Below are positions 1 to 10,761 of a DNA stretch of 10,761 nucleotides, one piece after another. Position 1 is the stretch's first letter. Every line of letters starts with the position of its first letter. Under the pieces are notes generated by a model. That model ran no database searches and was not told the DNA's origin. It saw nothing but the letters and a program-made list of their open reading frames with translations. The stretch spans positions 1-10,761 of the forward strand of contig CAXTTL010000167.1 of the NCBI GenBank assembly GCA_964247135.1. Reading direction: 5' to 3'. The translations under genes and the position numbers were made by a program. The DNA comes from an uncultured Deinococcales bacterium (GTDB lineage Bacteria > Deinococcota > Deinococci > Deinococcales > JAAFIG01).

Positions 1-800
1 CGACCAACGGTTCGGTGGGAATCGGCGGCGAGATCATGAACGCCCTGCCGAAGCTCGAGATTATCGCCTGTTACGGCGTCGGCGTCGATGCGATAGATTT
101 GGTGAGCGCCAAAGCCAGAGCCATTGCCGTCACGACCACACCCGATGTGCTGACCGCTGATGTGGCAGACATGGCGGTGGGTTTGATGATGGCGAGCGCC
201 AGACGGCTGGTTCGCGGCGACAAATACGTGCGTAACCTCGAGTGGGGGCAAAAGGGCGAGATGCCGTTGACCCGGCGGGTGACGGGCAAACGGGCTGGAA
301 TCGTCGGTCTTGGACGGGTTGGGAAGGCGCTGGCAAAACGTTTGACCGCCTTCGAGATGCAAATTTCTTATACCGATGTCAGTGCTCAGAGCGATCAGCC
401 GTACCATTTTATTGCCGATTTGACCGAACTGGCTCGAGGCAGCGATTTTTTGATCGTGACCGCCGCCGGTGGTCCAGCCTCGAAGAAAATGGTCAACCAA
501 TCCGTCCTCGAGGCATTGGGCGCAAAAGGCACACTGATCAATGTGTCTCGAGGTTCGATAGTCGATGAGGAGGCACTTGTGGCGGCACTCGAGGCTGGGA
601 CGTTGGGCGCGGCGGGTTTGGACGTGTTCGCCAACGAACCGCACGTTCCCGAAGCTTTGTTCAAGTTCGAGAATGTTGTGCTGATGCCGCATCATTCGAG
701 CGGCACGGTGGAATCGCGCACGGCAATGGGAGATTTGATCGTTGGCAACTTGGCGGCGCATTTTGCGGGGCAACCGTTGTTGACCCCATTTGTTTTTTAA
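1..800 (+). CDS. D-isomer-specific 2-hydroxyacid dehydrogenase (hydroxypyruvate/2-ketogluconate reductase-like), 5' end outside window
   Basis: Frame is open from position 3 (T-N-G-S-V-G...), so the real start lies upstream. Motifs: GVGVDAID, Rossmann GIVGLGRVG, LINVSRG (substrate-binding Arg), AGLDVFANEP (Glu) and PHHSS (catalytic His). Stop TAA 798-800. Confidence 0.9.
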   Translation, partial: TNGSVGIGGEIMNALPKLEIIACYGVGVDAIDLVSAKARAIAVTTTPDVLTADVADMAVGLMMASARRLVRGDKYVRNLEWGQKGEMPLTRRVTGKRAGIVGLGRVGKALAKRLTAFEMQISYTDVSAQSDQPYHFIADLTELARGSDFLIVTAAGGPASKKMVNQSVLEALGAKGTLINVSRGSIVDEEALVAALEAGTLGAAGLDVFANEPHVPEALFKFENVVLMPHHSSGTVESRTAMGDLIVGNLAAHFAGQPLLTPFVF

Positions 801-811
801 CAGGAGGTTTC

Positions 812-1852
812 ATGCTCGCATGTGTAATTCACAGTGCCAAAGACTTAAGAATTGAAGCTCGAGACATCCCAGAACCCGAAGCCAATGAGGTGCTGGTGCG
901 GTTTGGTGCGGGTGGCATCTGCGGTTCGGATTTGCATTATTTCAATCACGGCGGCGTCGGCGATTTTAAATTGCAAGAGCCGATGGTGCTCGGGCATGAA
1001 GTTTCGGGCGAGGTGGTGAACATCGGCAATGCTGTAAAAGGCATACAAATTGGCGATCATGTCGCGGTTGATCCATCCAGACCGTGCAGGGCGTGCGATT
1101 ACTGTTTGGCGGGACGCAGCAATCTGTGCCGACACATGCGCTTTTTTGGCAGCGCGGCACTGTTTCCGCATGTTCAGGGCGGCTTTTCAGAATTCTTTAA
1201 AGTCGCCGATTTTCAGTGTCATGTGGTTCCCAAAGACATTGCCTACAACGTGATTGCTTGCGCCGAACCGCTGGCGGTAACGCTTCATGCGGTGGCTCGA
1301 GTTGGCTCGTTGATGGGGGCAAAAGTGCTGATTACCGGCGCGGGTCCAATTGGGGTTTTGACCGTCGCGGCGGCAAAAATGGCTGGCGCGAGCGAAATCA
1401 CCATCGTTGATTTGTTCGACGAGCCGCTCGAGATTGCGCGAGCGATGGGCGCGACCAATGTTGTCAATTCCGTTTCAAATCCCGATGAACTCGAGGCATT
1501 CCAAGATCATAAAGGCATTTTTGATGTTTCGTTTGAAGCCAGCGGCAACGCCAAAGCGCTCGAGACTTGCGTGCAATCCACGCGTCCTGGCGGCAGCATG
1601 GTGCAGATCGGCATTTTGCCGCCTGGATTGAGCAGTGCGCCGATCAACCGAATTTTGGCGAAGGAACTCGGGTTTTTGGGTACCTTTCGTTTTCACCACG
1701 AGTTTGCTTGGGCAGTCGGCGCTTTGGTTTCAAAACGCATCGATGTGACGCCAATTCTGACGGCACAATTTGGTTTTCATGATGCTGTGAATGCTTTTGA
1801 ACTGGCATCGAACCGCAAAAAAGCCATGAAAGTCTCGTTGCGGTTTGATTGA
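812..1852 (+). CDS. idnD: Zn-dependent medium-chain dehydrogenase, L-idonate 5-dehydrogenase-like
   Basis: 346 aa with SD AGGAGG at 802-807. Catalytic Zn motifs GICGSDLH and GHE, structural Zn C-x2-C-x2-C-x7-C (CRACDYCLAGRSNLC) and GAGPIG NAD-binding motif. The segment MRFFGSAALFPHVQGGF and the C-terminal KAMKVSL resemble IdnD. Substrate is inferred from family resemblance only. Confidence 0.8.
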   Translation: MLACVIHSAKDLRIEARDIPEPEANEVLVRFGAGGICGSDLHYFNHGGVGDFKLQEPMVLGHEVSGEVVNIGNAVKGIQIGDHVAVDPSRPCRACDYCLAGRSNLCRHMRFFGSAALFPHVQGGFSEFFKVADFQCHVVPKDIAYNVIACAEPLAVTLHAVARVGSLMGAKVLITGAGPIGVLTVAAAKMAGASEITIVDLFDEPLEIARAMGATNVVNSVSNPDELEAFQDHKGIFDVSFEASGNAKALETCVQSTRPGGSMVQIGILPPGLSSAPINRILAKELGFLGTFRFHHEFAWAVGALVSKRIDVTPILTAQFGFHDAVNAFELASNRKKAMKVSLRFD

Positions 1853-1937
1853 TTTGGGTCCTATGGAAGGCTCGAGTTTGAGTTAGGCTGTCGCTGATTC
1901 AAAATCTTGGGCGGCAAAGAATTGCATTTTTGAGGGC

Positions 1938-1966
1938 TTGTATTTTTGTCATGATAACGCTATCAT
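1938..1966 (+). promoter_or_regulatory. Putative sigma70 promoter for the ABC transporter operon
   Basis: -35 TTGTAT (1938-1943), 17-nt spacer and -10 TATCAT (1961-1966), in an AT-rich intergenic region. Confidence 0.6.
1951..1966. promoter_or_regulatory. LacI-family operator-like palindrome ATGATA-ACGC-TATCAT
   Basis: 16-bp dyad with 14/16 positions symmetric and the central CG typical of LacI/GalR operators. It resembles the ATGTTA-N4-TAACAT site of the E. coli LacI-type gluconate repressor GntR. Its right arm is the -10 hexamer. Confidence 0.7.
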
Positions 1967-2050
1967 CCTTGGAACAATTTACAATCCAGTTTCATGGTTC
2001 AAGCGTTTTGCGCTTTCGATTTTTTGGTCATCCACGGGGTTCTTTTGAAC

Positions 2051-3577
2051 ATGCTCTCAACCTCACAACCCGCAACAATGCCACCGAGCGTCAAACCTGC
2101 ATTGCTCGAGTTCAAGCACGTCTCCAAGCAGTTTGGCGGCACGTTGGCAATTGACGATTTGTCGCTCGCCGTGAACGCCGGTGAGGTGCTGGCACTGCTG
2201 GGGCAGAACGGCGCGGGAAAAAGCACGGTCATCAAAATCTTGGCTGGCGTTCATGCCGCCTCGAGCGGTGAGATTTTATTTCAGGGACGCAAACTCGAGT
2301 CTTTTCAGCCCAAAGCGCCGATTGCGTTCATTCACCAAGATTTGGGTTTGATCGAATGGATGACCGTAGCCGAAAATTTGTCGTTTGGCACTGGATTCCC
2401 CAAGAAAAACGGCTTGATCGATTGGGGCAGTGCGAACACCCGAGCCACCAAAATGCTCAAAGTGGTGGGCGGCGGCATCCGCCCAAGTGCACGAATTTTC
2501 AGTTTGTCACGCACCGAACGCGCCTTGGTCGCCATCGCGCGGGCACTCGCCCAGGAAGCCCAATTGCTGGTCTTGGACGAGCCAACCTCGAGCTTGCCAT
2601 CGGCGGATGTGGAGCGTTTGTTTGAAGTGCTGCGCCACTTGCGGGCTGCCGGCGTGGGTATCATTTATGTTTCGCATCGTCTGGACGAAATTTTTAGGAT
2701 CAGCGACCGCATTGCCGTCATGCGCGACGGCAAATTGGTGAGTCTGTGCCATGCCCGAGAAACCAATCAATCCGAATTGGTCACGACCATCGTTGGGCAT
2801 AAAATCACCGAGGCGTATCCCAAAGCTTCAAACCCAACCATTCGAAAGCCCTTGCTCGAGGTGTCAGGTTTGCAGGTGGCGGCGCTCGACACCGTCAATT
2901 TTGGCGTTCGTCCAGGCGAGGCACTCGGTTTAACGGGCTTAAAAGGCGCTGGACAGGTCGAAATCGGGCGGGCGTTGTTTGGACTCGAGCCAATTCTGGC
3001 GGGGCAGATCAAACTTGATAACAACCTGATTCAAACGTCTTCACCGCTGGCGGCAATGCAGTCGGGCATCGGTTTTGTCTCCTCCAACCGCCGTGAGGAA
3101 AGCCTTGCCATGACCTTGAGCGTGCGTGAAAACTTTTTCATGAACCCAGCCAATCGCAAACTCAAACTTCACCAGACGATTCAACCCAAAAAAGAGAAAT
3201 CCGACGCTCGAGCTTGGGTCAAACGCTTCAACGTCCGTCCCCCAGATTCCGAACAGGCGCTTGACACGCTCTCGGGCGGCAACCAGCAAAAAGTCGTGAT
3301 GGGACGCTGGCTCGAGTTTGGGGCAAAACTCTTGATTCTCGAGGAACCGACCTTGGGCGTGGATGTCGGCTCAAAAGCCGAAATTTACGGTTTTCTGGTG
3401 GCGGCGCTCGAGGCTGGCGCGGCGGTGCTGCTCGTCTCCACCGATCTCGAGGAAATTGCTGGGATTTGTCACCGAGCACTCGTGTTTAACCGTGGCAGTG
3501 TGGCTGACGAACTTGAAGGAAATGCCTTAACCGTTCCCGCTTTGGTCCACGCGGCGGCGGGCGATCTCACAAACTAA
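2051..3577 (+). CDS. Sugar ABC transporter ATP-binding protein (CUT2, RbsA/MglA-type tandem NBD)
   Basis: NBD1 has Walker A GQNGAGKST, Q-loop IHQDL, Walker B LVLDEPT and H-loop YVSHRL. NBD2 has LSGGNQQK, LILEEPTLGVD and STDLEE. Start is uncertain: in-frame ATGs at 1994, 2051 and 2078. 2051 was chosen because GGGGT lies at 2036-2040. Confidence 0.92.
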   Translation: MLSTSQPATMPPSVKPALLEFKHVSKQFGGTLAIDDLSLAVNAGEVLALLGQNGAGKSTVIKILAGVHAASSGEILFQGRKLESFQPKAPIAFIHQDLGLIEWMTVAENLSFGTGFPKKNGLIDWGSANTRATKMLKVVGGGIRPSARIFSLSRTERALVAIARALAQEAQLLVLDEPTSSLPSADVERLFEVLRHLRAAGVGIIYVSHRLDEIFRISDRIAVMRDGKLVSLCHARETNQSELVTTIVGHKITEAYPKASNPTIRKPLLEVSGLQVAALDTVNFGVRPGEALGLTGLKGAGQVEIGRALFGLEPILAGQIKLDNNLIQTSSPLAAMQSGIGFVSSNRREESLAMTLSVRENFFMNPANRKLKLHQTIQPKKEKSDARAWVKRFNVRPPDSEQALDTLSGGNQQKVVMGRWLEFGAKLLILEEPTLGVDVGSKAEIYGFLVAALEAGAAVLLVSTDLEEIAGICHRALVFNRGSVADELEGNALTVPALVHAAAGDLTN

Positions 3578-3593
3578 TCTCTCGAGGTTTTTT

Positions 3594-4691
3594 ATGCAAT
3601 CACTCAAATCCGATGCGCTCGAGCCAGACCCGAACGACCTGCGCGGCAAACCGCTGGGGCAGGTGATCGTTCGGCTTATTCCGGTTTACGGTCTGGTCGT
3701 GATCACGCTGTTTTTAATTGTTGTGTTCTCGATTTTGCTGCCCAGGACTTTTCCAACGGCGCTCAACCTCGAAAGTATGCTCAAACGCCAAAGCATCAAT
3801 GCCCTGATGGCGTTGGCGGTCATGATGCCGATGGCGGCGGGTAAAATTGATCTCTCGATAGGTTTTGGCGTGATGCTCTGGGAGATCATGGCAATCTCGT
3901 TGCAAACCCGTTTTGGCATTCCCTGGCAACTGGTGATTCCAATTGTTTTGGCGGGCGGTGCCGTGATCGGCGTGGTCAATGCCAGTCTGGTCGAATTTGC
4001 GCGGATCGATGCGTTTATTGCGACGCTCGGAACTGCCACGGTCATCAACGCCCTGGCGTTGTGGTACACCAACGGGCAGCAGGTCGTTGGCACACTGCCA
4101 ACCAGCTTTTTTGAACTCTCCAAAGCCAGTATTCTGGGCATTCCAATATTGCCAATTTACCCGCTCGTCATCAGTCTCGCACTGTGGATCATGCTCGAGT
4201 ACCTGCCGATTGGACGCTACATTTACGTGGTCGGCGCCAATCCAGAGGCGGCGAAACTCAACGGCATTCCGACCCGCAAATACATCGTTTTGGCGTTCGT
4301 GCTCTCAGGCATGATCGTGGCGTTCGCGGGCGTCATTTTGGCATCGCAACTTCGCATCGGTCAGACCAGTTTGGGCGACAGTTACCTGTTGCCAGCGCTG
4401 GTCGGGGCATTCTTGGGTTCGACCACCCTCAAACCAGGGCGCGTCAACGTCTGGGGAACACTGATCGCCGTGGCGGTCTTGGCAATCGGCATTACCGGCT
4501 TGCAGCAACTCGGCGCAGAATTTTACGTCGAACCGATGTTCAACGGCTTGACCCTTTTAATCGCCATCGGTCTGGCGGGTCTGACAGGTCGCCGCCGCGT
4601 TCAACTGCAACGCGCTCGAGAAATTGCGCAGCACAGCACTCCCCCATCCCCACCGGACAAAAGCTCGAGTGAAGAGCCTGTCAAAAAGTAA
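3594..4691 (+). CDS. Sugar ABC transporter permease (RbsC/BPD_transp_2 family)
   Basis: 365 aa with many hydrophobic segments. Family motifs IDLSIG, FIATLGT and GRYIYVVGANPEAAKLNGI. SD-like GAGGT at 3584-3588. Confidence 0.92.
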   Translation: MQSLKSDALEPDPNDLRGKPLGQVIVRLIPVYGLVVITLFLIVVFSILLPRTFPTALNLESMLKRQSINALMALAVMMPMAAGKIDLSIGFGVMLWEIMAISLQTRFGIPWQLVIPIVLAGGAVIGVVNASLVEFARIDAFIATLGTATVINALALWYTNGQQVVGTLPTSFFELSKASILGIPILPIYPLVISLALWIMLEYLPIGRYIYVVGANPEAAKLNGIPTRKYIVLAFVLSGMIVAFAGVILASQLRIGQTSLGDSYLLPALVGAFLGSTTLKPGRVNVWGTLIAVAVLAIGITGLQQLGAEFYVEPMFNGLTLLIAIGLAGLTGRRRVQLQRAREIAQHSTPPSPPDKSSSEEPVKK

Positions 4692-4708
4692 GACTCCAAG
4701 GAGGAAAG

Positions 4709-5824
4709 ATGAAGCACAAAAATGCAGTTCTGGGTATTGCCCTGATTGGTGCAGCGCTCGCCGTGGCAGCCGCGTACAACGTCAATGCCCAAGATGACAT
4801 CGTCGCCAAAGCCAAGGCATTCGTCAAAGATGCCGCCAGCAAAGCCAACAAATGGACCGGTCCAACCTCGGGTCCAAAAGCGGCGGCTGGAAAATCCGTT
4901 ATTTATGTCTCGAGCGACCAACGCAACGGTGGCGCTCAGGGTGTGGGAGACGGCGTCAGCGAGGCAGCAAAAGCCATCGGTTGGGATTATAAACTGCTCG
5001 ACGGGCGCGGCACGGTTCAGGGTCACGGCGACGCCTTGGGGCAAGCCATCGTGCAAAAACCCGATGCGATTATTCTGGGTGGTTTTGACGCCACCGAACA
5101 AGCCGATCTGGTCGAGCAAGCCAACAAGGCGGGCATTGTGGTGGCAGGCTGGCACGCGGCAGGCACGCCAGGACCGCAAACCAACCCGACCATGTTCACC
5201 AACGTCACCACGCCAGCCCAGGACACCTCGGAAGCGGCAGCCTATCTGGCAATTGCCAACTCCAACGGCAAGGCGGGCGTCGTGGTCTTCACCGACAGCG
5301 CCTACGCGATTGCGGTTGCCAAATCCGATGCGATGGCGAACATCATCAGGCAATGCAAAACCTGCACCTTACTCGAGACTCGAGTTCAAAGCCTTGGCAC
5401 AGCCACCAAAGACATGCCAACCGTGACCTCGAACTTGCTGCAAAAGTACGGCAAGAAGTGGACGTACAGCCTGGGCATCAACGATTTGTATTTTGACGGC
5501 ATGGTTCCTGGTTTGGTCAGCGCCAACATCCGCCCGAGCGGTCAGTTGTTTAACATTTCGGCGGGCGACGGTTCGGAAAGCGCCTACCAGCGCGTGCGCA
5601 CCAAGCAATACCAATACGCCACCATTCCAGAACCGATCAATTTGCAAGGCTGGCAATTGGTGGACGAGATCAACCGTGCGATCAACAAAGAAGCACCGAG
5701 CGGCTTCAAGATTCCGGTGCATATCGTCGTGCCTGGCAACGTCAATTACGACGGCGGCAAGAAGAACCTGTTCGACCCAGAGAACGGCTACCGCGACCGT
5801 TACAAGAAGATTTGGGGCAAATAA
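4709..5824 (+). CDS. Periplasmic sugar-binding protein (type I fold, Peripla_BP_4-like)
   Basis: 371 aa with strong SD AAGGAGG at 4697-4703. Sec signal peptide (MKHK, hydrophobic core, VNA|QD) with no lipobox. Motifs QKPDAIILGG and QGWQLVDEINRA. Sits directly after the ATPase and permease. Confidence 0.88.
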   Translation: MKHKNAVLGIALIGAALAVAAAYNVNAQDDIVAKAKAFVKDAASKANKWTGPTSGPKAAAGKSVIYVSSDQRNGGAQGVGDGVSEAAKAIGWDYKLLDGRGTVQGHGDALGQAIVQKPDAIILGGFDATEQADLVEQANKAGIVVAGWHAAGTPGPQTNPTMFTNVTTPAQDTSEAAAYLAIANSNGKAGVVVFTDSAYAIAVAKSDAMANIIRQCKTCTLLETRVQSLGTATKDMPTVTSNLLQKYGKKWTYSLGINDLYFDGMVPGLVSANIRPSGQLFNISAGDGSESAYQRVRTKQYQYATIPEPINLQGWQLVDEINRAINKEAPSGFKIPVHIVVPGNVNYDGGKKNLFDPENGYRDRYKKIWGK

Positions 5825-5851
5825 ATTTTGTAAACTCAAATTCTTGTCCTT

Positions 5852-5891
5852 CCTCTCATCCCCGACCCTTCTCTCCTGGGAGAGAAGGGAG
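5852..5891. repeat. REP-like palindromic unit, possibly acting as terminator or mRNA-stabilising hairpin
   Basis: Perfect 11-bp inverted repeat CCCTTCTCTCC (5866-5876) / GGAGAGAAGGG (5879-5889), preceded by the pyrimidine-rich leader CCTCTCATCCCCGA. The stem starts about 40 nt after the SBP stop. Only a weak T run follows. Confidence 0.6.
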
Positions 5892-5895
5892 TTTC

Positions 5896-6032
5896 ATACC
5901 AAATTGCGGGGAACAGTCATGCTTTATCGACTGTTCCCCCGACCAACGGGAGTGGCAAAAGTACGGAATCAACGAGGTTAACGGAGTTGTGGAGCGAAGC
6001 GGAATAACGGAGTGTTCTCGTTGATTCCGTAT
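5896..6032. repeat. 137-bp structured small non-coding element with ATAC...GTAT ends (Deinococcota SRE/SNR-like)
   Basis: Ends ATAC (5896-5899) and GTAT (6029-6032). Hairpin 1 GGGGAACAGTC (5908-5918) / GACTGTTCCCC (5929-5939). Linker CGACCAACGGGAGT. Hairpin 2 TACGGAATCAACGAG (5962-5976) / CTCGTTGATTCCGTA (6017-6031). Only one copy is in the window, so repeat status is inferred. Confidence 0.65.
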
Positions 6033-6116
6033 CATTGGAATCTCGAGTGAATCGCTGACTTTTAAACTCGAGCTTCTTTTCATCCTCAGAAACTTCAAGC
6101 GCATGATCTAAAGGTA

Positions 6117-7028
6117 ATGATGACAAACCAATTCGAGATTTTTGACGAGCGTTTTAACAGCATTCTTTTGCCCGATTCCAAACTCGAGAAACTGGCTTCT
6201 GGGGCAGTTTGGTCTGAGGGTCCGGTGTACCTCGAGCAGGATCAAAGCGTGATTTGGTCTGATATTCCTGGCAATCGCTTGTTGCGCTGGAGTGAGGTGG
6301 ACGGGTTGAGCGAATTTCTCAAGCCCTCAGAATTTCATAACGGTCACACGCTCGATTTAGAAGGTCGGATCATCGCGTGTTCGCACGGTGAACGGGCGGT
6401 CATGAGGCTCGAGGCGGATGGAACCTGGACGAAATTGGTCAGCCATTTTGAGGGCAAAAAACTGAACTCGCCCAATGACGTGATCGTGAAATCTGATGGC
6501 ACAATCTGGTTTTCTGACCCGTCTTATGGCTTGATTCAACCGAACGAGGGTTACGGAGGTATGCAGGAACAGGCGGGGTGTTACGTCTACCGATTCGATC
6601 CCGTGAATTTGGACATTGACGCGGTGGTGACCGACATGGAAAAACCGAACGGCTTGGCATTCTCGAGCGACGAAAAGATTTTGTATGTTTCAGACACCAG
6701 CGCCAGCCACGACAAAAACGGCAAGCATCACATTCGGGCTTACGATGTGCTGGACGACTCGAGCACGGCAAATGGGCGGGTGTTTGCGGTGATCGAACCT
6801 GGTTTGCCCGATGGTTTTAGACTCGACAAAAACGGTTGGGTTTTCACCAGCTCGCAAGACAGCATTCAGGTCTTCACCCCCGCCGGCACGCTGCTCGGCA
6901 AAATTCTGGTGCCGGAAAAAGTTGGCAATCTGACGTTTGGCGGCGCAAACAAAGATCGGGTTTTTATCGCAGCAAGCTCGAGTCTGTACGCCATCACGCT
7001 CAACACCCAAGGGCTGCAACGCCCGTGA
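6117..7028 (+). CDS. SMP-30/gluconolactonase/LRE family protein (sugar lactone lactonase)
   Basis: 303 aa (ATG at 6117 or 6120). Propeller motifs WSEGPVY, WSDIPGN, NG, LNSPND, WFSDP, KPNGLAFS and PDG carry the metal-binding E/N/N/D residues. No signal peptide. Confidence 0.9.
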   Translation: MMTNQFEIFDERFNSILLPDSKLEKLASGAVWSEGPVYLEQDQSVIWSDIPGNRLLRWSEVDGLSEFLKPSEFHNGHTLDLEGRIIACSHGERAVMRLEADGTWTKLVSHFEGKKLNSPNDVIVKSDGTIWFSDPSYGLIQPNEGYGGMQEQAGCYVYRFDPVNLDIDAVVTDMEKPNGLAFSSDEKILYVSDTSASHDKNGKHHIRAYDVLDDSSTANGRVFAVIEPGLPDGFRLDKNGWVFTSSQDSIQVFTPAGTLLGKILVPEKVGNLTFGGANKDRVFIAASSSLYAITLNTQGLQRP

Positions 7029-7906
7029 GGCTCGAGCCTGGTTGCACGATAGGCTTTGTGGGTTTGGGTTTGATGGGCAAACCGATGGCGCTCAATCTTT
7101 TACAGGCTGGTTTCAAGCTGCGGGTTTGGAATCGAACGCCAGAAAAAGCGCTCGAGGTGGCGGCGGCGGGGGCAGAACTTGTCTCGAGTTTGCCAGAAGT
7201 TGCAAAAGGCGCGAGCGCCGTCATCACCATGCTCGAGAATGGCGCGGCGGTGACTGAGGTTTTGTTCTCGAGCGGTTTGGTTGGGGCGAGCACCCCAGGA
7301 ACCGTTTTTATTGACATGAGTTCAATTGCGCCCGCCATTGCTGAGGATCATGCGCATTTGCTCGAGGATCGAGGATTGAGATACATTGATGCGCCAGTTT
7401 CGGGTGGCACGGTTGGCGCAGAAAACGGCACGCTGGCGATCATGGCGGGTGGACTCGAGGCTGAGATTGCGAGGGCTGGTGCCATTCTTGAGGCATTGGG
7501 CAAGGTCACGCACGTTGGACCGCACGGAAGCGGACAGCTTTGCAAATTGGTCAACCAAAGCATTGTTGCCATCACCATCGGCGCGGTGGCGGAAGGCTTG
7601 CTGCTCGCCAAAAAAGGGGGCGCCGATCCCGCCAAAGTCCGCCAAGCCATTATGGGCGGGTTTTGTCAGTCTCGGATTCTCGAGCTTCACGGTTTACGGA
7701 TGATCGAGGGCAACTTTGAACCTGGCGGCACGGTCAAAAATCAAATTAAAGACTTGAACGCGGTGCTCGAGGTCGCATCAAAACTCAAACTCGAGCTTCC
7801 ACTGACCGAACGTGTTCACGGTTTGTTCTCGGAATTGGCTGCAAATGGCGGTGAAATGCTCGACCACAGTGCCCTGTACTTGCAACTCGAGCGCCCAGAT
7901 TCTTGA
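7025..7906 (+). CDS. NAD(P)-dependent beta-hydroxyacid dehydrogenase (2-hydroxy-3-oxopropionate reductase / 3-hydroxyisobutyrate dehydrogenase family)
   Basis: Start GTG 7025 overlaps the upstream TGA (GTGA), giving 293 aa. Motifs IGFVGLGLMG, WNRT, IDMSS, DAPVSGG, catalytic GQLCKLVNQ and the C-terminal KDL. Confidence 0.9.
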   Translation: MRLEPGCTIGFVGLGLMGKPMALNLLQAGFKLRVWNRTPEKALEVAAAGAELVSSLPEVAKGASAVITMLENGAAVTEVLFSSGLVGASTPGTVFIDMSSIAPAIAEDHAHLLEDRGLRYIDAPVSGGTVGAENGTLAIMAGGLEAEIARAGAILEALGKVTHVGPHGSGQLCKLVNQSIVAITIGAVAEGLLLAKKGGADPAKVRQAIMGGFCQSRILELHGLRMIEGNFEPGGTVKNQIKDLNAVLEVASKLKLELPLTERVHGLFSELAANGGEMLDHSALYLQLERPDS

Positions 7907-7967
7907 AGATTTTGTTCAACTCGGTTCAAACGTGGCATAATCTCGAGTTTTCTTTTGTTCGCGTGCT

Positions 7968-7982
7968 TATGATGTGTTGGTG
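7968..7982 (+). promoter_or_regulatory. -10 element (TATGAT) 6 nt upstream of GTG: probable leaderless promoter of plsY
   Basis: TATGAT 7968-7973, 6-nt spacer and in-frame GTG at 7980-7982. No SD upstream. Confidence 0.55.
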
Positions 7983-8681
7983 AACTACAACTTTCTCTGG
8001 GTGGCGGTCGTGGCATACCTGTTCGGTTCGATACCGTTCGGGGTGCTGGTGGCGCGAACGTATGCCATTGACGTGCAAAAAGTTGGCTCGGGCAACACGG
8101 GCGCGAGCAACGTCTTGCGATCTGCGGGTTGGGGTCCTGGTTTGGTCGTGGCGCTGGCGGACATCATGAAAAGTGGTGTTGCGGTTTTGATCGCGCAAGC
8201 CTTTGGAATGCCCAGTTGGGAAGTGATGCTGGTCGGTTGGTGCGCCGTGATTGGGCACAATTATTCCATTTTTTTGGGCTTCAAGGGCGGCAAGGGCGTT
8301 GCCGCGTCGTTCGGCACAATTGCGTTTCTTGACATCGGGCTGGGCATCGCCATCTTGCCGTTGTTTATCATTACCGTTTTGGTGACGCGCTTCACCAGTG
8401 CGGCATCGATCATTGCCTCAGCCTCGAGTGTGATTTTGGCGATAGCCATGCAGCGCGAATGGTGGAAAGTGCTCATGCTGGGCGGTTTGGCGCTCATGAT
8501 TGCCTTCAAGCACCGCGACAACCTCGGGCGGATGTACGCGGGCATCGAGCGCCGCATCGACCAGCGCGAACCTCGGGTCGTCTCGAGCGACACGGCAAAA
8601 CCTGGTACGGTGGACGCTTTGTTCAGGTCCGAGCCGCAGGAGCACATTCCGGTTTCGGAACCCGAGAAAAAATCCGAATGA
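7980..8681 (+). CDS. plsY: Glycerol-3-phosphate acyltransferase PlsY
   Basis: AYLFGSIPFG, motif 1 GSGNTGASNVLR, DIMK, GHNYS, motif 2 FKGGKGVA and motif 3 HRDNLGR, in a multi-TM protein. Start GTG 7980 is preferred; GTG 7974 is also in frame. Confidence 0.93.
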   Translation: MNYNFLWVAVVAYLFGSIPFGVLVARTYAIDVQKVGSGNTGASNVLRSAGWGPGLVVALADIMKSGVAVLIAQAFGMPSWEVMLVGWCAVIGHNYSIFLGFKGGKGVAASFGTIAFLDIGLGIAILPLFIITVLVTRFTSAASIIASASSVILAIAMQREWWKVLMLGGLALMIAFKHRDNLGRMYAGIERRIDQREPRVVSSDTAKPGTVDALFRSEPQEHIPVSEPEKKSE

Positions 8682-9385
8682 ACTCGAGCATCATGACTTT
8701 TGGCAAGCTCGAGTCCTTGGATATTTTATGCATTGCGCCTCACCCCGACGATGGCGAAATTGGTTGCGGCGGCAGTTTGGCGAGGGCAAAATCTGAAGGC
8801 AAACGCACTGGGATTCTCGAGTTGACGCTTGGCGAAATGGGCAGTTTGGGAACGCCCGAAATTCGCTTAACGGAGGCTCGGGCGGCGGCAGAAATTCTGG
8901 GCTTGAGTTTCCGTGGAAACCTGCGTTGGAACGACGGTGCAATTCAGGATTCTGAAACGTATCGGCTCGAGTTGGCGCAAGTCATCCGTGATTTGAAACC
9001 CAAAACCTTGCTTGTCCCGCACGAGACAGACCGTCACCCAGACCATGTTGGGGCGGCGAAGGTGGCGACTGCGGCGCTGCATTTCGCGGGGTTGCGCAAA
9101 GCCAAACTATCTGGCGAACCGCACAAGGTTTCCAAGGTGTTGTATTACCAAGGCAACTCGCCCATCGAGGCGAACCTGCTGGTGAATGTCACCGATGTTA
9201 TGGATGTTTGGGAAGCCGCCGTCTTGGCGCACGCCAGCCAATTCACCGGCGAAGCCGTTTCCGAAACCGTGAGTCCAGAAATTTTAGATCGCCGAAAAGC
9301 CAGAATGATGTACTGGGGCACGTTTATTGGGGCGCGTTACGCTGAAAGTTATCAGTCTCGGGTGCCGCTCGAGTTTGGACTGTAA
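8678..9385 (+). CDS. bshB1: LmbE/PIG-L family deacetylase, bacillithiol biosynthesis deacetylase BshB1-like
   Basis: ATG 8678 overlaps the plsY TGA (ATGA), giving 235 aa. Motifs APHPDDGEIGCGG, LTLGEMGS..TPEIRLTEA, DRHPDH, AHASQF and GARYAE. Confidence 0.85.
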   Translation: MNSSIMTFGKLESLDILCIAPHPDDGEIGCGGSLARAKSEGKRTGILELTLGEMGSLGTPEIRLTEARAAAEILGLSFRGNLRWNDGAIQDSETYRLELAQVIRDLKPKTLLVPHETDRHPDHVGAAKVATAALHFAGLRKAKLSGEPHKVSKVLYYQGNSPIEANLLVNVTDVMDVWEAAVLAHASQFTGEAVSETVSPEILDRRKARMMYWGTFIGARYAESYQSRVPLEFGL

Positions 9386-9397
9386 ACTGCAAAGGTG
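9383..9397 (+). promoter_or_regulatory. -10 element (TAAACT) 6 nt upstream of GTG, overlapping the bshB1 stop codon
   Basis: TAAACT 9383-9388, spacer GCAAAG and GTG 9395-9397. No correctly spaced SD. Confidence 0.5.
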
Positions 9398-10096
9398 TCC
9401 GAATCCGCCCCCGTGGTCAATCCCAAATCCTGGCATCGTCCAGAATTGCGTTCCATTGAGGTCACCCGAACCCTCGAGCGATTGTTGGAACGAATTTTGG
9501 AACGGTTCCCGAATTCTGGTTTAAGTCGCGTTTGTACAGACTTGATCAAAATTTCCAAAGACACCAAAGAGGTGGCAACCTGGATCATCAAGCCGCTCTG
9601 GTCGGTAAGGATCGGCATTGGACTCTTTTTATTGTTTGTCACCGTGGCACTGATGTTCACCGTCTCGAGGTCACAGATTGGCGTGTCCAAAATTGATTTG
9701 CAAAGCTTGGTCTCGATGCTCGAGTCGATCACCAACGAGCTGGTTTTGCTGGTGGCTGGAATTTTTTCGCTCATCACCATCGAATCTCGCATCAAGCGTG
9801 GGCGCGTGATCGATGCCATCACCAACCTCCGCGCCGTGGCGCACATCATCGACATGCACCAACTGACCAAAGCCCCAGGCTCGGGTCAGCACGGTTTAAA
9901 CAACGAAAACCTGGCGCGGTATTTGGATTACTGCTCGGAGATGCTCAGTTTGGTGTCCAAAATCGCATTTTTGTACGTCAATAATTTTGACGATGCCGCC
10001 GCAAACCAGAGCGTCAATGAACTCGAGGATTTGACCTCGGGTTTGTCGCGCAAGATTTGGCAGAAAATCACGATTATTCTCGATCAGGACGGTTGA
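9395..10096 (+). CDS. Uncharacterised membrane protein (two predicted TM helices plus helical soluble domain)
   Basis: 233 aa filling the gap between bshB1 and the convergent gene. Hydrophobic segments IGIGLFLLFVTVALMFTV and LVLLVAGIFSLITI. Motif-like stretches LLERILERFPNSGL, AHIIDMHQLTK, RYLDYCSEMLSL and LSRKIWQKI. Confidence 0.8.
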   Translation: MSESAPVVNPKSWHRPELRSIEVTRTLERLLERILERFPNSGLSRVCTDLIKISKDTKEVATWIIKPLWSVRIGIGLFLLFVTVALMFTVSRSQIGVSKIDLQSLVSMLESITNELVLLVAGIFSLITIESRIKRGRVIDAITNLRAVAHIIDMHQLTKAPGSGQHGLNNENLARYLDYCSEMLSLVSKIAFLYVNNFDDAAANQSVNELEDLTSGLSRKIWQKITIILDQDG

Positions 10097-10761
10097 AGTT
10101 GCTGCTCGAGTTCTTTGGGTGTATTCACGGGCATTTGACACGCCAGGTTTTCGCAAACGTAAGCGGTCGCTTTGTCCTCAATCATCTCGCGTTGCTCGAG
10201 CACGGGCAGGTAGCCCTCCCCTGCCGGAGCGGCGACCACCGCAACGTGCGGCAAGAATCTCGAGTTGAGGACTTTGAGCAAAGCTTTGGTGTCGTCATGT
10301 TCGAGGTTGCCGATGATGGCGACTTCGCGCATCGGGCTGGCGTGGGCTTCCAGGGCTTGCAGCAAACTGCCAAAACCCGTGGGCTGGCGGTGCATGACTT
10401 CCAGCATGTGTTTGATCGGCTCGAGCGCCAATTGTTCCCATTCATGTTTGCCCGTTAAGCGCGAAAGCTCAATCAACAGCATTGCCATTGCGCCGTTGCC
10501 GCTCGGCATGGCGCTGTCAAAATAACCTTTGGGTCGGACAATCAGTTTCTCGCCGTCTTTGGGCGTGTCAAAAAAGCCGCCGTTCGGGTCAGAAAACAAT
10601 TCGATGGCAGCGTTGGTCAATTGAACCGCAAACTCGAGGTGCTCGCGGTTGAAGGTCGTGCGGTACAACTCGAGCAATCCGAGGGCGTAAAAGCCGTAAT
10701 CGTCGAGCATCCCGTCGATTTCGGAAATTCCGTTTTTATGGGTGTGCAGCAGGCGTCCCTT
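10084..10761 (-). CDS. Thioredoxin domain-containing YyaL/SPATA20 (DUF255) family protein, C-terminal part; 5' end outside window
   Basis: Frame stays open to the window edge (KGRLLHTHKNGISEIDGMLDDY...). Motifs LDDY, GGFFDT, DSAMPSGN and ATAYVCENLACQMP. Stop TGA at 10086-10084, overlapping the 3' end of the + strand gene by 13 bp. Confidence 0.88.
   Translation of the reverse strand, partial: KGRLLHTHKNGISEIDGMLDDYGFYALGLLELYRTTFNREHLEFAVQLTNAAIELFSDPNGGFFDTPKDGEKLIVRPKGYFDSAMPSGNGAMAMLLIELSRLTGKHEWEQLALEPIKHMLEVMHRQPTGFGSLLQALEAHASPMREVAIIGNLEHDDTKALLKVLNSRFLPHVAVVAAPAGEGYLPVLEQREMIEDKATAYVCENLACQMPVNTPKELEQQLQPS

Follow-up and report, generated by a model that had tools for sequence, protein, structure and literature searches.

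The DNA analysed here is a stretch of 10,761 nucleotides (nt) from an uncultured Deinococcales bacterium. It is called the window, and corresponds to one entire contig (C167) of the source genome, denoted G000. The window is dotted with copies of the palindrome CTCGAG, and the question that it raises is what kind of sequence this hexamer is and what keeps it so abundant. The first-pass annotation had seen in CTCGAG a counterpart, outside cyanobacteria, of HIP1 (highly iterated palindrome 1, GCGATCGC); alternate HIPs are known in cyanobacteria as well (Elhai 2015, PMC4390886; Xu et al. 2018, PMC5861425). HIP1-level abundance is described in PMC5861425 as not observed outside cyanobacteria. No published report of CTCGAG hyper-abundance was found in a search of the literature outside subscription journals and REBASE. 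HIP1 proper is excluded: G000 contains only 47 copies of CGATCG, and the nearest named records are Deinococcales metagenome-assembled genomes (MAGs), at 86-87% protein identity. The data leave very little doubt that CTCGAG is a clade-wide palindrome of the HIP type, under uniform directional pressure at the DNA level, and that its new copies arise by base substitution. The original proposal is borne out in that the abundance of CTCGAG is genome-wide and clade-wide, and goes beyond codon-pair bias.

CTCGAG copies in the window

CTCGAG occurs 68 times between positions 54 and 10674. In 200 dinucleotide-preserving shuffles of the window 2.11 copies are expected (standard deviation 1.41, maximum 8), and none of the 200 reaches 68. 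The hand count of the first-pass annotation (about 68 copies versus about 3 expected) was therefore exact, coordinates included. Copies start at 54, 237, 433, 507, 547, 588, 858, 1296, 1427, 1490, 1559, 1871, 2105, 2260, 2294, 2587, 2855, 2984, 3207, 3311, 3338, 3407, 3446, 3581, 3618, 4194, 4615, 4664, 4909, 5372, 5379, 6042, 6067, 6183, 6231, 6408, 6662, 6758, 6977, 7031, 7151, 7183, 7232, 7267, 7361, 7454, 7679, 7766, 7790, 7886, 7942, 8423, 8582, 8683, 8708, 8816, 8966, 9368, 9473, 9664, 9719, 10022, 10105, 10195, 10259, 10420, 10633 and 10669, the last spanning 10669-10674. All are exact matches.

All three reading frames are used, as had been claimed. Forty-two sites read CTC-GAG and encode Leu-Glu (frame 0; for example 54-59, plus strand, in the 2-hydroxyacid dehydrogenase gene 3-800), seven read xCT-CGA-Gxx (frame 1; for example 433-438, plus strand, Ala-Arg-Gly, in the same gene) and 14 read xxC-TCG-AGx (frame 2; for example 2260-2265, plus strand, in the ABC ATPase gene 1994-3577). 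Five copies are intergenic, and fall within 555 intergenic bases. They are taken as the spacer copies already noticed in the first-pass annotation, namely 1871-1876 (between the gene end at 1852 and the gene start at 1994), 3581-3586 (between 3577 and 3594), 6042 and 6067 (spanning 6042-6072, directly past dispersed repeats at 5837-6036 described below) and 7942-7947 (between 7906 and 7974). A tandem pair, with copies starting 7 nt apart at 5372 and 5379 (5372-5384, plus strand), and the occurrence of the word in genes of both strands were also found as described. Six copies (10105, 10195, 10259, 10420, 10633 and 10669; 10105-10674) reside in the minus-strand gene 10084-10761. Nine of the 11 genes of the window are identifiable, and all encode ordinary metabolic and transport proteins, in agreement with the notion that the responsible gene lies elsewhere.

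Genome-wide abundance and effect on proteins

The G000 assembly (5,091,702 bases in 386 contigs, 84% complete, 1.8% contamination) hosts 33,925 copies of CTCGAG, one per 150 bp or 6.7/kb. Base composition gives an observed/expected ratio (O/E) of 24.8, and a first-order Markov model one of 35.2. CTCGAG is the commonest of all hexamers in the genome; the next palindrome, TTTAAA, has an O/E of 3.7. The word is found on every one of the 386 contigs, at a density of at least 2.56 copies/kb (median 6.81).

Genes (4,370, 86% of the DNA being coding) were predicted by a simple caller of our own, based on open reading frames (ORFs) and codon scores. The density of CTCGAG is 6.62/kb in genes (28,926 copies) and 6.93/kb in DNA scored as intergenic (4,988 copies), part of which consists of uncalled genes; 11 copies lie on boundaries. 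The intergenic fraction has a GC content of 45.6%, and the first-order expectation for it is 132 copies. Genic copies were compared with a synonymous-codon null, obtained by ten shuffles within each gene. This null preserves protein and codon usage, and is hence conservative. CTC-GAG is found 18,054 times versus 3,136 in the shuffled genes (O/E 5.8), xCT-CGA-Gxx 4,221 times versus 287 (O/E 14.7), and xxC-TCG-AGx 6,607 times versus 582 (O/E 11.4). An excess is thus seen in every class into which the hexamer counts were divided, by frame as well as between genes and spacers.

Outside the motif, CTC and GAG are both minor codons, accounting for 15% of Leu and 32% of Glu codons, respectively. Leu-Glu is encoded by CTC-GAG in 18,053 of 23,325 pairs (77%), versus 11% expected. 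The Leu-Glu dipeptide is itself the most over-represented of all dipeptides (O/E 2.34; Glu-Leu, 1.01), with a surplus of about 13,400 occurrences, and the pressure therefore alters proteins, beyond codons.

These data bear on the most trivial explanation, that CTCGAG merely follows from the usage of codons, codon pairs or amino acids, or else reflects a mobile element scattered in the genome or an artefact of assembly. The codon pair CTC-GAG does account for 62% of the coding copies. However, density is the same in intergenic and in coding DNA, frames 1 and 2 still show O/E values of 11-15 when the codon usage of each gene is preserved, and the two codons are both minor outside the motif. Further arguments against this explanation are the lack of conservation in the flanks of CTCGAG, the presence of the trait in 19 of 19 genomes of the family and the conservation of site positions between species. 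This explanation is refuted, and its residual probability is negligible. Codon-pair bias had been judged insufficient in the first-pass annotation too, and the excess in fact extends beyond Leu-Glu pairs, survives the codon-usage-preserving null in all frames and is found on all contigs.

Conservation and turnover of sites

Sites were compared between G000 and G005, a genome of the same genus. From 397 kb of G005, 289 kb were aligned to G000, with 85.8% identity. As many as 1,662 of 2,114 CTCGAG sites of G000 (78.6%) are kept in G005, while class-matched control hexamers reach about 46%. Conservation is 0.832 (control 0.461) in frame 0, 0.651 (0.463) in frame 1, 0.768 (0.463) in frame 2 and 0.731 (0.456) in intergenic DNA. 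When the test is conditioned on a conserved amino acid, codon identity inside and outside the motif is 0.918 and 0.576 for CTC, 0.947 and 0.717 for GAG, 0.821 and 0.611 for CGA, and 0.921 and 0.698 for TCG. Of the 452 sites at which G005 departs from G000, 243 do so by a single base; the changes are mostly transitions, and involve all six positions.

The window was also aligned to five genomes of the same genus. At 45 motif positions all six genomes could be compared: the word is present in six genomes at 10 of these positions, in five at 14, in four at four, in three at six, in two at four and in one at seven. G000, G005 and G001 share the copy at 858; G002 has CCCGAG at this place, and a new CTCGAG at 875 (858-880, plus strand). 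Similarly, the copy at 6758 is kept in five of the six genomes; it is lost in G002, which features a new copy at 6750, and the encoded peptide changes from LDDSS to LEDFS (6750-6763, plus strand). The copy at 433 is replaced in G001 by a motif located 4 nt further on (437), and in G002 by the one-off variant CTTGAG. CTCGAG sites are thus both retained and newly created by base substitution, and the alignment of orthologues supports the idea of a process that keeps the word as well as writes it.

In the three cases 858 to 875 and 6758 to 6750 in G002, and 433 to 437 in G001, the new site lies 4-17 nt from a loss in the same lineage. Between G000 and G005, pairs of sites at alternative positions, 6-50 nt apart, number 69, versus 40 expected under a uniform null and 47 under a divergence-weighted null. 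This 1.5-1.7-fold excess gives a weak hint of local compensation of lost sites.

Strength of the pressure and word-poor genes

The strength of the pressure was expressed as S, the logarithm of the observed/expected odds of CTCGAG versus each one-step neighbour. For the four synonymous neighbours of CTC-GAG, S is 3.45, 3.01, 4.82 (CTG-GAG) and 3.57; for nine intergenic neighbours it ranges from 2.7 to 5.0 (median 3.9). The pressure is equal in coding and non-coding DNA, and shifts the odds by about e^3 to e^4. S may be read as a scaled coefficient of selection or conversion.

CTCGAG O/E is 23-24 in all classes of genes with a GC content of at least 0.40, and drops to 14.6 in the 17 genes below 0.40. 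Only four genes of at least 1,200 bp lack the word. Three of them have GC contents of 0.26-0.36 and look like recent imports; their products are an O-antigen ligase, a fusion of reverse transcriptase and protease, and an AAA ATPase. The fusion gene (G000, contig C4, 51606-53231; GC 0.35, no CTCGAG) encodes a reverse transcriptase of 542 amino acids (aa) joined to a trypsin-like protease; it has the looks of a retroelement that was imported recently and may be involved in defence. In practice, CTCGAG density can be used to flag imported genes in these genomes.

Other word-poor genes encode solute-binding proteins (seven of the 20 poorest), ammonium transporters and permeases. Density is 3.03/kb in 44 solute-binding homologues and 2.95/kb in 19 permeases, versus 7.2/kb in 98 ABC ATPases. 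Leu-Glu is encoded by CTC-GAG in 92-94% of cases in binding proteins and permeases, which have fewer Leu-Glu pairs. They are word-poor because of this shortage, and not because of codon choice. As the share of CTC-GAG is high even in the poor classes, synonymous opportunities are near saturation, and the tolerance of the protein sets the rest. Expression level was considered as a cause of low density and discarded, since the number of Leu-Glu pairs explains the poor classes. The gene of ribosomal protein L14 is absent from the assembly, and no ORF of the size of EF-Tu was found among nine GTPase-domain matches.

Anatomy and spacing of the word

CTCGAG is a bare hexamer. Base frequencies at positions -8 to -1 range from 0.18 to 0.39, the strongest preference being G at -1 (38.6%). 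Variants differing at one position are near expectation (O/E 0.5-1.7), with the exception of CTAGAG (0.08). CTTGAG and CTCAAG, the variants that deamination would generate, are not depleted (O/E 1.17). The comparison of one-off variants, called for at the outset, thus speaks against the methylation-directed repair of near-matches that had been suggested as a possible writer of the word.

Gaps between copies are near-exponential, with a mean of 148, a coefficient of variation (CV) of 0.96 and a deficit below about 20 nt. The only periodicity is of 3 nt, and derives from coding. At scales of 500 bp, 1 kb and 5 kb, the index of dispersion takes the values 0.91, 1.12 and 1.89, respectively. Placement of CTCGAG is locally random, with some regional variation, and quasi-periodic spacing of the type described for HIP1 was not found in G000 (gap CV 0.96). 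Copies spaced by 6 are missing altogether from G000, because this arrangement would create GAGCTC, a hexamer that has no copy in the 5.09 Mb of the genome.

Distribution in the order

A sample of 221 genomes of the order was monitored, with genome sizes rounded. The family of G000 (f1) is represented by 19 genomes, G000 and 18 relatives, all MAGs with a completeness of 57-94%. All 19 carry about 4.3-6.8 CTCGAG/kb. In family f5, probably the Thermaceae, the genera g13 (20 genomes), g22 (4) and g24 (3) have about 1.4-3.5/kb, and genus g9 (30 genomes) has 0.6-1.6/kb, near the count of the reversed word. Family f2 is mixed, some genera reaching 1.5-2.6/kb. In family f4, genus g8 mostly has about twice as many copies as its control, and genus g15 about as many. 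In family f3, the 58 genomes of genus g7, presumably Deinococcus, are depleted, with 0.01-0.27/kb. The word was also counted in named records. A "Thermaceae bacterium" MAG hosts 12,078 copies in 3.9 Mb, in line with the remark, in the first-pass annotation, on CTCGAG richness in other Deinococcota; its counts equal those of G157, a g13 genome, which is why f5 is probably the Thermaceae. Copies number 486 for a Deinococcus sp. MAG (4.4 Mb), 138 for Deinococcus saxicola (4.6 Mb), 1,223 for a Verrucomicrobiota MAG (3.3 Mb) and 2,236 for a Mesorhizobium (6.7 Mb).

As density is graded across the order, gene content can be compared with abundance of the word along a natural series of genomes. The intermediate genera (about 1.4-3.5/kb) seem to include cultured Thermaceae, and this opens the way to uptake, methylome and binding experiments. 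A dialect was found in G027, a genome of family f2, in which 2,645 of 3,131 CTCGAG copies sit in the 8-mer GCTCGAGC; in G022 only five of 1,966 copies do.

GAGCTC is nearly missing (0-25 copies) from 16 of the 19 f1 genomes. A coupling between CTCGAG richness and GAGCTC absence was considered and discarded: genus g24 is rich in CTCGAG and yet has 1,778-4,391 GAGCTC copies, and the two traits are therefore separable. Avoidance of GAGCTC is better explained by a SacI-type system.

Viral contigs were also scanned. Among the matches listed, most of the dense ones are high-GC, and are rich in GAGCTC too. Seven viral loci, two of which f1-like, were compared with G000; none matches, and no virus could be tied to family f1. 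One linear viral contig (L220, in G228; 36,913 bp, 66% GC, host not assigned) carries 100 CTCGAG and one GAGCTC, a word signature that is the one of the intermediate CTCGAG-rich genera of the order.

Methyltransferases, nucleases and Vsr

Twelve methyltransferase candidates (M1-M12) have been identified in G000. Neither these nor any methyltransferase class were found to be common to family f1, within the limits set by MAGs and by specificities that are unreadable from sequence. M2, M5, M11 and M12 were examined as universal partner of CTCGAG, and rejected because all are patchy in the family. M1 and M3, both N4/N6 methylases, are paired with nucleases of the MvaI/BcnI family (pair at contig C189, 4080-5632) and of the NotI family (pair at C207, 3-1650), respectively, and M10, a C5 methylase, with a nuclease of the NgoPII family (pair at C14, 36040-37936). 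M12, a D12-class methylase, overlaps a 364-aa ORF (the two at C320, 1064-2985) that matches SacI-family nucleases over almost its whole length (E 8e-7), and is present in 6 of the 18 relatives. Full-length orthologues of M2 are found in 2 of 18 relatives, and orthologues of M11 with at least 50% identity in 3 of 18. Relatives of M5 with at least 62% identity are also found in 3 of 18, and two of them are interrupted by stop codons: L337 (G005, C76, 182942-184300) has one TGA and one TAG, L338 (G012, C72, 42092-43402) has two TGA. The M5 methylase family is about 60% identical across several phyla. M7 (C112, 1671-6167; 1,499 aa) combines an Eco57I/N6-type methylase and an SNF2-family helicase, and resides on a CTCGAG-poor contig (3.5/kb). 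M8 and M9 are MmeI-like, and M6 is a Type I HsdM.

Words that we take to be the targets of G000 nucleases, by the specificities of their families, are strongly avoided in the genome: GGCC has 380 copies (O/E 0.02), CCSGG 856 versus 13,311 for CCWGG, and GAGCTC none. Other 6-bp palindromes are rare as well (GGGCCC, one copy; CGGCCG, three; AGGCCT, four; CGTACG, five; GGATCC, seven). The purge of GAGCTC across family f1 is stronger than the patchy presence of M12 would suggest.

Methylase classes were searched for in the family. PF01555 methylases have no match in G011 (a single contig), G003 and G015, and C5 methylases were not found in G003, G005, G008, G009 and G015. Eco57I-type ORFs of about 485-540 aa were evaluated as CTCGAG methylases similar to PaeR7I or MamA. 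Twenty were extracted, and 18 scanned, two near-duplicates having been left out. Fifteen of the 18 are Type I HsdM proteins, and the candidate class was rejected; the remaining three are two unrelated Type II gamma methylases (G009 and G027, 19% identity) and a mispicked nuclease ORF.

Vsr (PF03852) is found in none of the 19 f1 genomes, and in one of the 31 genomes examined. The XhoI-family nuclease (PF04555) is similarly missing from all 19, in a search limited to this nuclease family. It was detected in six of the 221 genomes of the order (four in g8, one in g15 and a broken copy in g14), and the search therefore has power there. In G021 and G102 the nuclease adjoins a PF01555 methylase. 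Relatives of the G021 methylase with 63% identity are found in G027 and G022 only; matches in family f1 are limited to 33-47% identity over conserved motif regions. The G027 relative (in locus L331, C75, 1-2526) is 282 aa long and abuts an unannotated ORF of 209 aa; the G022 relative (in locus L332, C9, 58237-62022) corresponds to the C-terminal part of a 583-aa ORF. G027 and G022 may provide a natural contrast between a written word and a restricted word.

The window is represented in two public short-read contig sets only, both with small word shares (0.16 and 0.07), and no conclusion on DNA modification is drawn from them. The ComEC channel was found in 18 of the 19 f1 genomes and in all 12 genomes of other families, 30 of 31 in all.

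Possible mechanisms

CTCGAG is tentatively regarded as a recognition word for resident or kin DNA during uptake or recombination, spread by molecular drive; a probability of about 0.3 is assigned to this reading. The word would be read by the machinery that handles such DNA, and copies would build up because fragments that bear it are taken up or recombined preferentially, a process modelled for uptake signal sequences (USS) and DNA uptake sequences (DUS) and proposed for HIP1. All that sets this reading above the enzyme-based ones is that they did not pass their tests, whereas it stood up to the one test that could have refuted it, the presence of ComEC. Several points weigh against it. ComEC is equally present in CTCGAG-poor relatives, and is thus non-discriminating. 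In the data set analysed no sequence feature points to biased uptake or recombination, and no candidate for a receptor was identified. The uptake sequences known in other bacteria measure 9-12 bp, are non-palindromic and occur at about 1/kb, whereas CTCGAG is a palindrome of 6 bp and about seven times denser. Thermus and Deinococcus are the competent members of the order, and their DNA uptake is reported to lack sequence preference. Spacing is near-Poisson and not even. The modest excess of alternative-position pairs and the three loss-plus-gain pairs of the window give a hint that local density is under selection, something that drive alone would not lead one to expect. The data used, moreover, do not allow direct selection to be distinguished from biased conversion.

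In the model put forward by Elhai for HIP1, maintenance is linked to methylation: a methylase would mark CTCGAG or TCGA, and repair of the methyl-directed or very-short-patch type would convert near-matches to the word. Alternate HIPs of cyanobacteria do co-occur with a methylase of the same specificity; methylases of either the m5C or the m4C class can act on the HIP1 core, and a small number of strains rich in HIP1 are described as lacking a recognisable methylase (PMC4390886). CTCGAG is m5C-methylated in Halorubrum (PMC8112702), and is the predicted target of a restriction-modification pair in Mycobacterium smegmatis (PMC7526240). The sole PF01555 methylase of G027, the genome that hosts the GCTCGAGC dialect, is the one 63% identical to the XhoI-linked methylase of G021, and no XhoI nuclease was found in G027. 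The family genomes, in addition, are incomplete. Against all this stand the absence of Vsr from the 19 genomes, the 33-47% identity over motifs of the relatives of the XhoI-linked methylase, the lack of PF01555 matches in three family genomes and of C5 methylases in five, the patchiness of M2, M5 and M11, the presence of M12 in only 6 of 18 relatives, the pairing of four Type II methylases with other nucleases, the assignment of 15 of 18 Eco57I-type matches to HsdM, and the O/E of 1.17 of CTTGAG/CTCAAG. Restriction-modification and Vsr-type methyl-directed repair are accordingly not read as the favoured mechanism, and maintenance by methylation is rated as rather improbable. The methylation-directed repair invoked in the first-pass annotation did not find support, as neither Vsr nor an XhoI-type nuclease, nor a shared methyltransferase or class, was found in the family. 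This negative result is not final, given the incompleteness of the MAGs and the class-swapping of HIP1 methylases described in PMC4390886.

CTCGAG could be, alternatively, the site of an abundant factor involved in nucleoid organization, condensation or segregation, and be selected directly, a certain local density being needed. In favour of this reading, conservation of the sites extends to intergenic DNA and to synonymous positions, and the pressure is equal in coding and non-coding DNA; the three loss-plus-gain pairs of the window, 4-17 nt apart, and the 69 alternative-position pairs versus 40-47 expected go in the same direction. The compensation signal is weak, however, and could reflect fine-scale variation in constraint. 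Spacing is near-Poisson (CV 0.96; dispersion 0.91-1.12 up to 1 kb), no relation to gene ends was noticed, though without a formal test, and no candidate protein was found; direct selection is deemed unlikely. Still less probable is that CTCGAG acts, as Chi does, as a self marker that attenuates a helicase-nuclease or another defence, a palindrome protecting from either end. One copy per 150 bp versus about one per 3-4 kb in unrelated genomes would grant strong discrimination, imported low-GC genes lack the word, and the 36.9-kb viral contig with 100 CTCGAG and one GAGCTC is what is expected if phages copy the marker. Yet known Chi sites are asymmetric and strand-oriented, and no virus was tied to family f1 among the matches listed.

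Recognition during uptake or recombination can be placed in a wider frame, to which only tentative credit is given: CTCGAG would be read by a system that can do without a cognate methyltransferase, be it one of self-DNA recognition (uptake, recombination, nuclease attenuation) or a writing enzyme. If so, a 6-bp palindrome alone would act as an identity mark of the lineage, having led to the fixation of more than 30,000 copies and of about 13,000 amino-acid-changing Leu-Glu pairs, and the same logic would explain HIP1.

Dispersed repeats in the window

At 5837-6036 of the window, the spacer that separates the gluconolactonase-like gene from the binding-protein gene hosts two dispersed units resembling REPs (repetitive extragenic palindromes) or MITEs (miniature inverted-repeat transposable elements). 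The first is about 43-46 bp long (5852-5897), and includes a hairpin with 11-nt arms (5866-5889). The second, about 105-140 bp long (5894-6036), includes two hairpins (5908-5939 and 5962-6031). Both are found in dozens of copies each, with 81-100% identity, spread over many contigs in each of the five same-genus genomes.

Comparison with known systems

Repeats of this sort share with CTCGAG the palindromic nature and the high number. REPs, BIMEs (bacterial interspersed mosaic elements) and MITEs are, however, conserved intergenic units of 30-150 bp, while CTCGAG lacks conserved flanks and is mostly found in genes. CTCGAG is the 6-bp word of XhoI and PaeR7I, and also of the predicted MamA/MSMEG_3214 pair of M. 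smegmatis (PMC7526240), yet no such nuclease or methylase was found in the 19 family genomes. Restriction targets are usually avoided, as are GGCC, CCSGG and GAGCTC in G000, whereas CTCGAG is 25-fold enriched. The very-short-patch repair carried out by Vsr on the CCWGG sites of Dcm in E. coli is sequence-specific, and shifts word frequencies genome-wide, with a small effect. In contrast to that system, Vsr is missing from all 19 genomes of family f1, and the deamination product of CTCGAG is not depleted.

USS of Pasteurellaceae and DUS of Neisseriaceae are asymmetric sequences of 9-12 bp, found about once per kb, for which uptake bias has been proven experimentally. In common with CTCGAG, they extend over whole genomes and families, come in dialects, are present in coding sequences to the detriment of proteins and are scarce in newly acquired DNA. 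They can accumulate by drive, without a benefit at each site. Family f1 resembles the hosts of these sequences in having the ComEC channel (18 of 19 genomes); CTCGAG differs from them in being a 6-bp palindrome, present at 6.7/kb, with almost no information in the flanks.

The closest parallel is HIP1. Both words are short, GC-rich palindromes in tens-fold excess, found in genes and spacers and in all frames, and spread by point substitution. Both are clade-wide, with local word variants, and lack an established function, which in the case of HIP1 has been so for about three decades; a link of HIP1 to transformation and uptake has been proposed (PMC13756078; bioRxiv 10.1101/2024.09.10.611283). 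Sites and synonymous codons are conserved beyond codon controls in both, by the same test that Xu et al. report (PMC5861425). Differences are also evident. CTCGAG is another and shorter word (6 bp), in another phylum. It reaches 6.7/kb, against a maximum of about one HIP1 per 350 nt (PMC5861425). HIP1 is associated with DmtA and DmtC, whereas no conserved cognate orphan methyltransferase was found for CTCGAG; and HIP1 is described as quasi-periodic in PMC13756078, whereas CTCGAG is near-Poisson. CTCGAG thus represents an independent and denser HIP-like case in a second phylum, and shows how far a pressure acting on DNA can override protein sequence.

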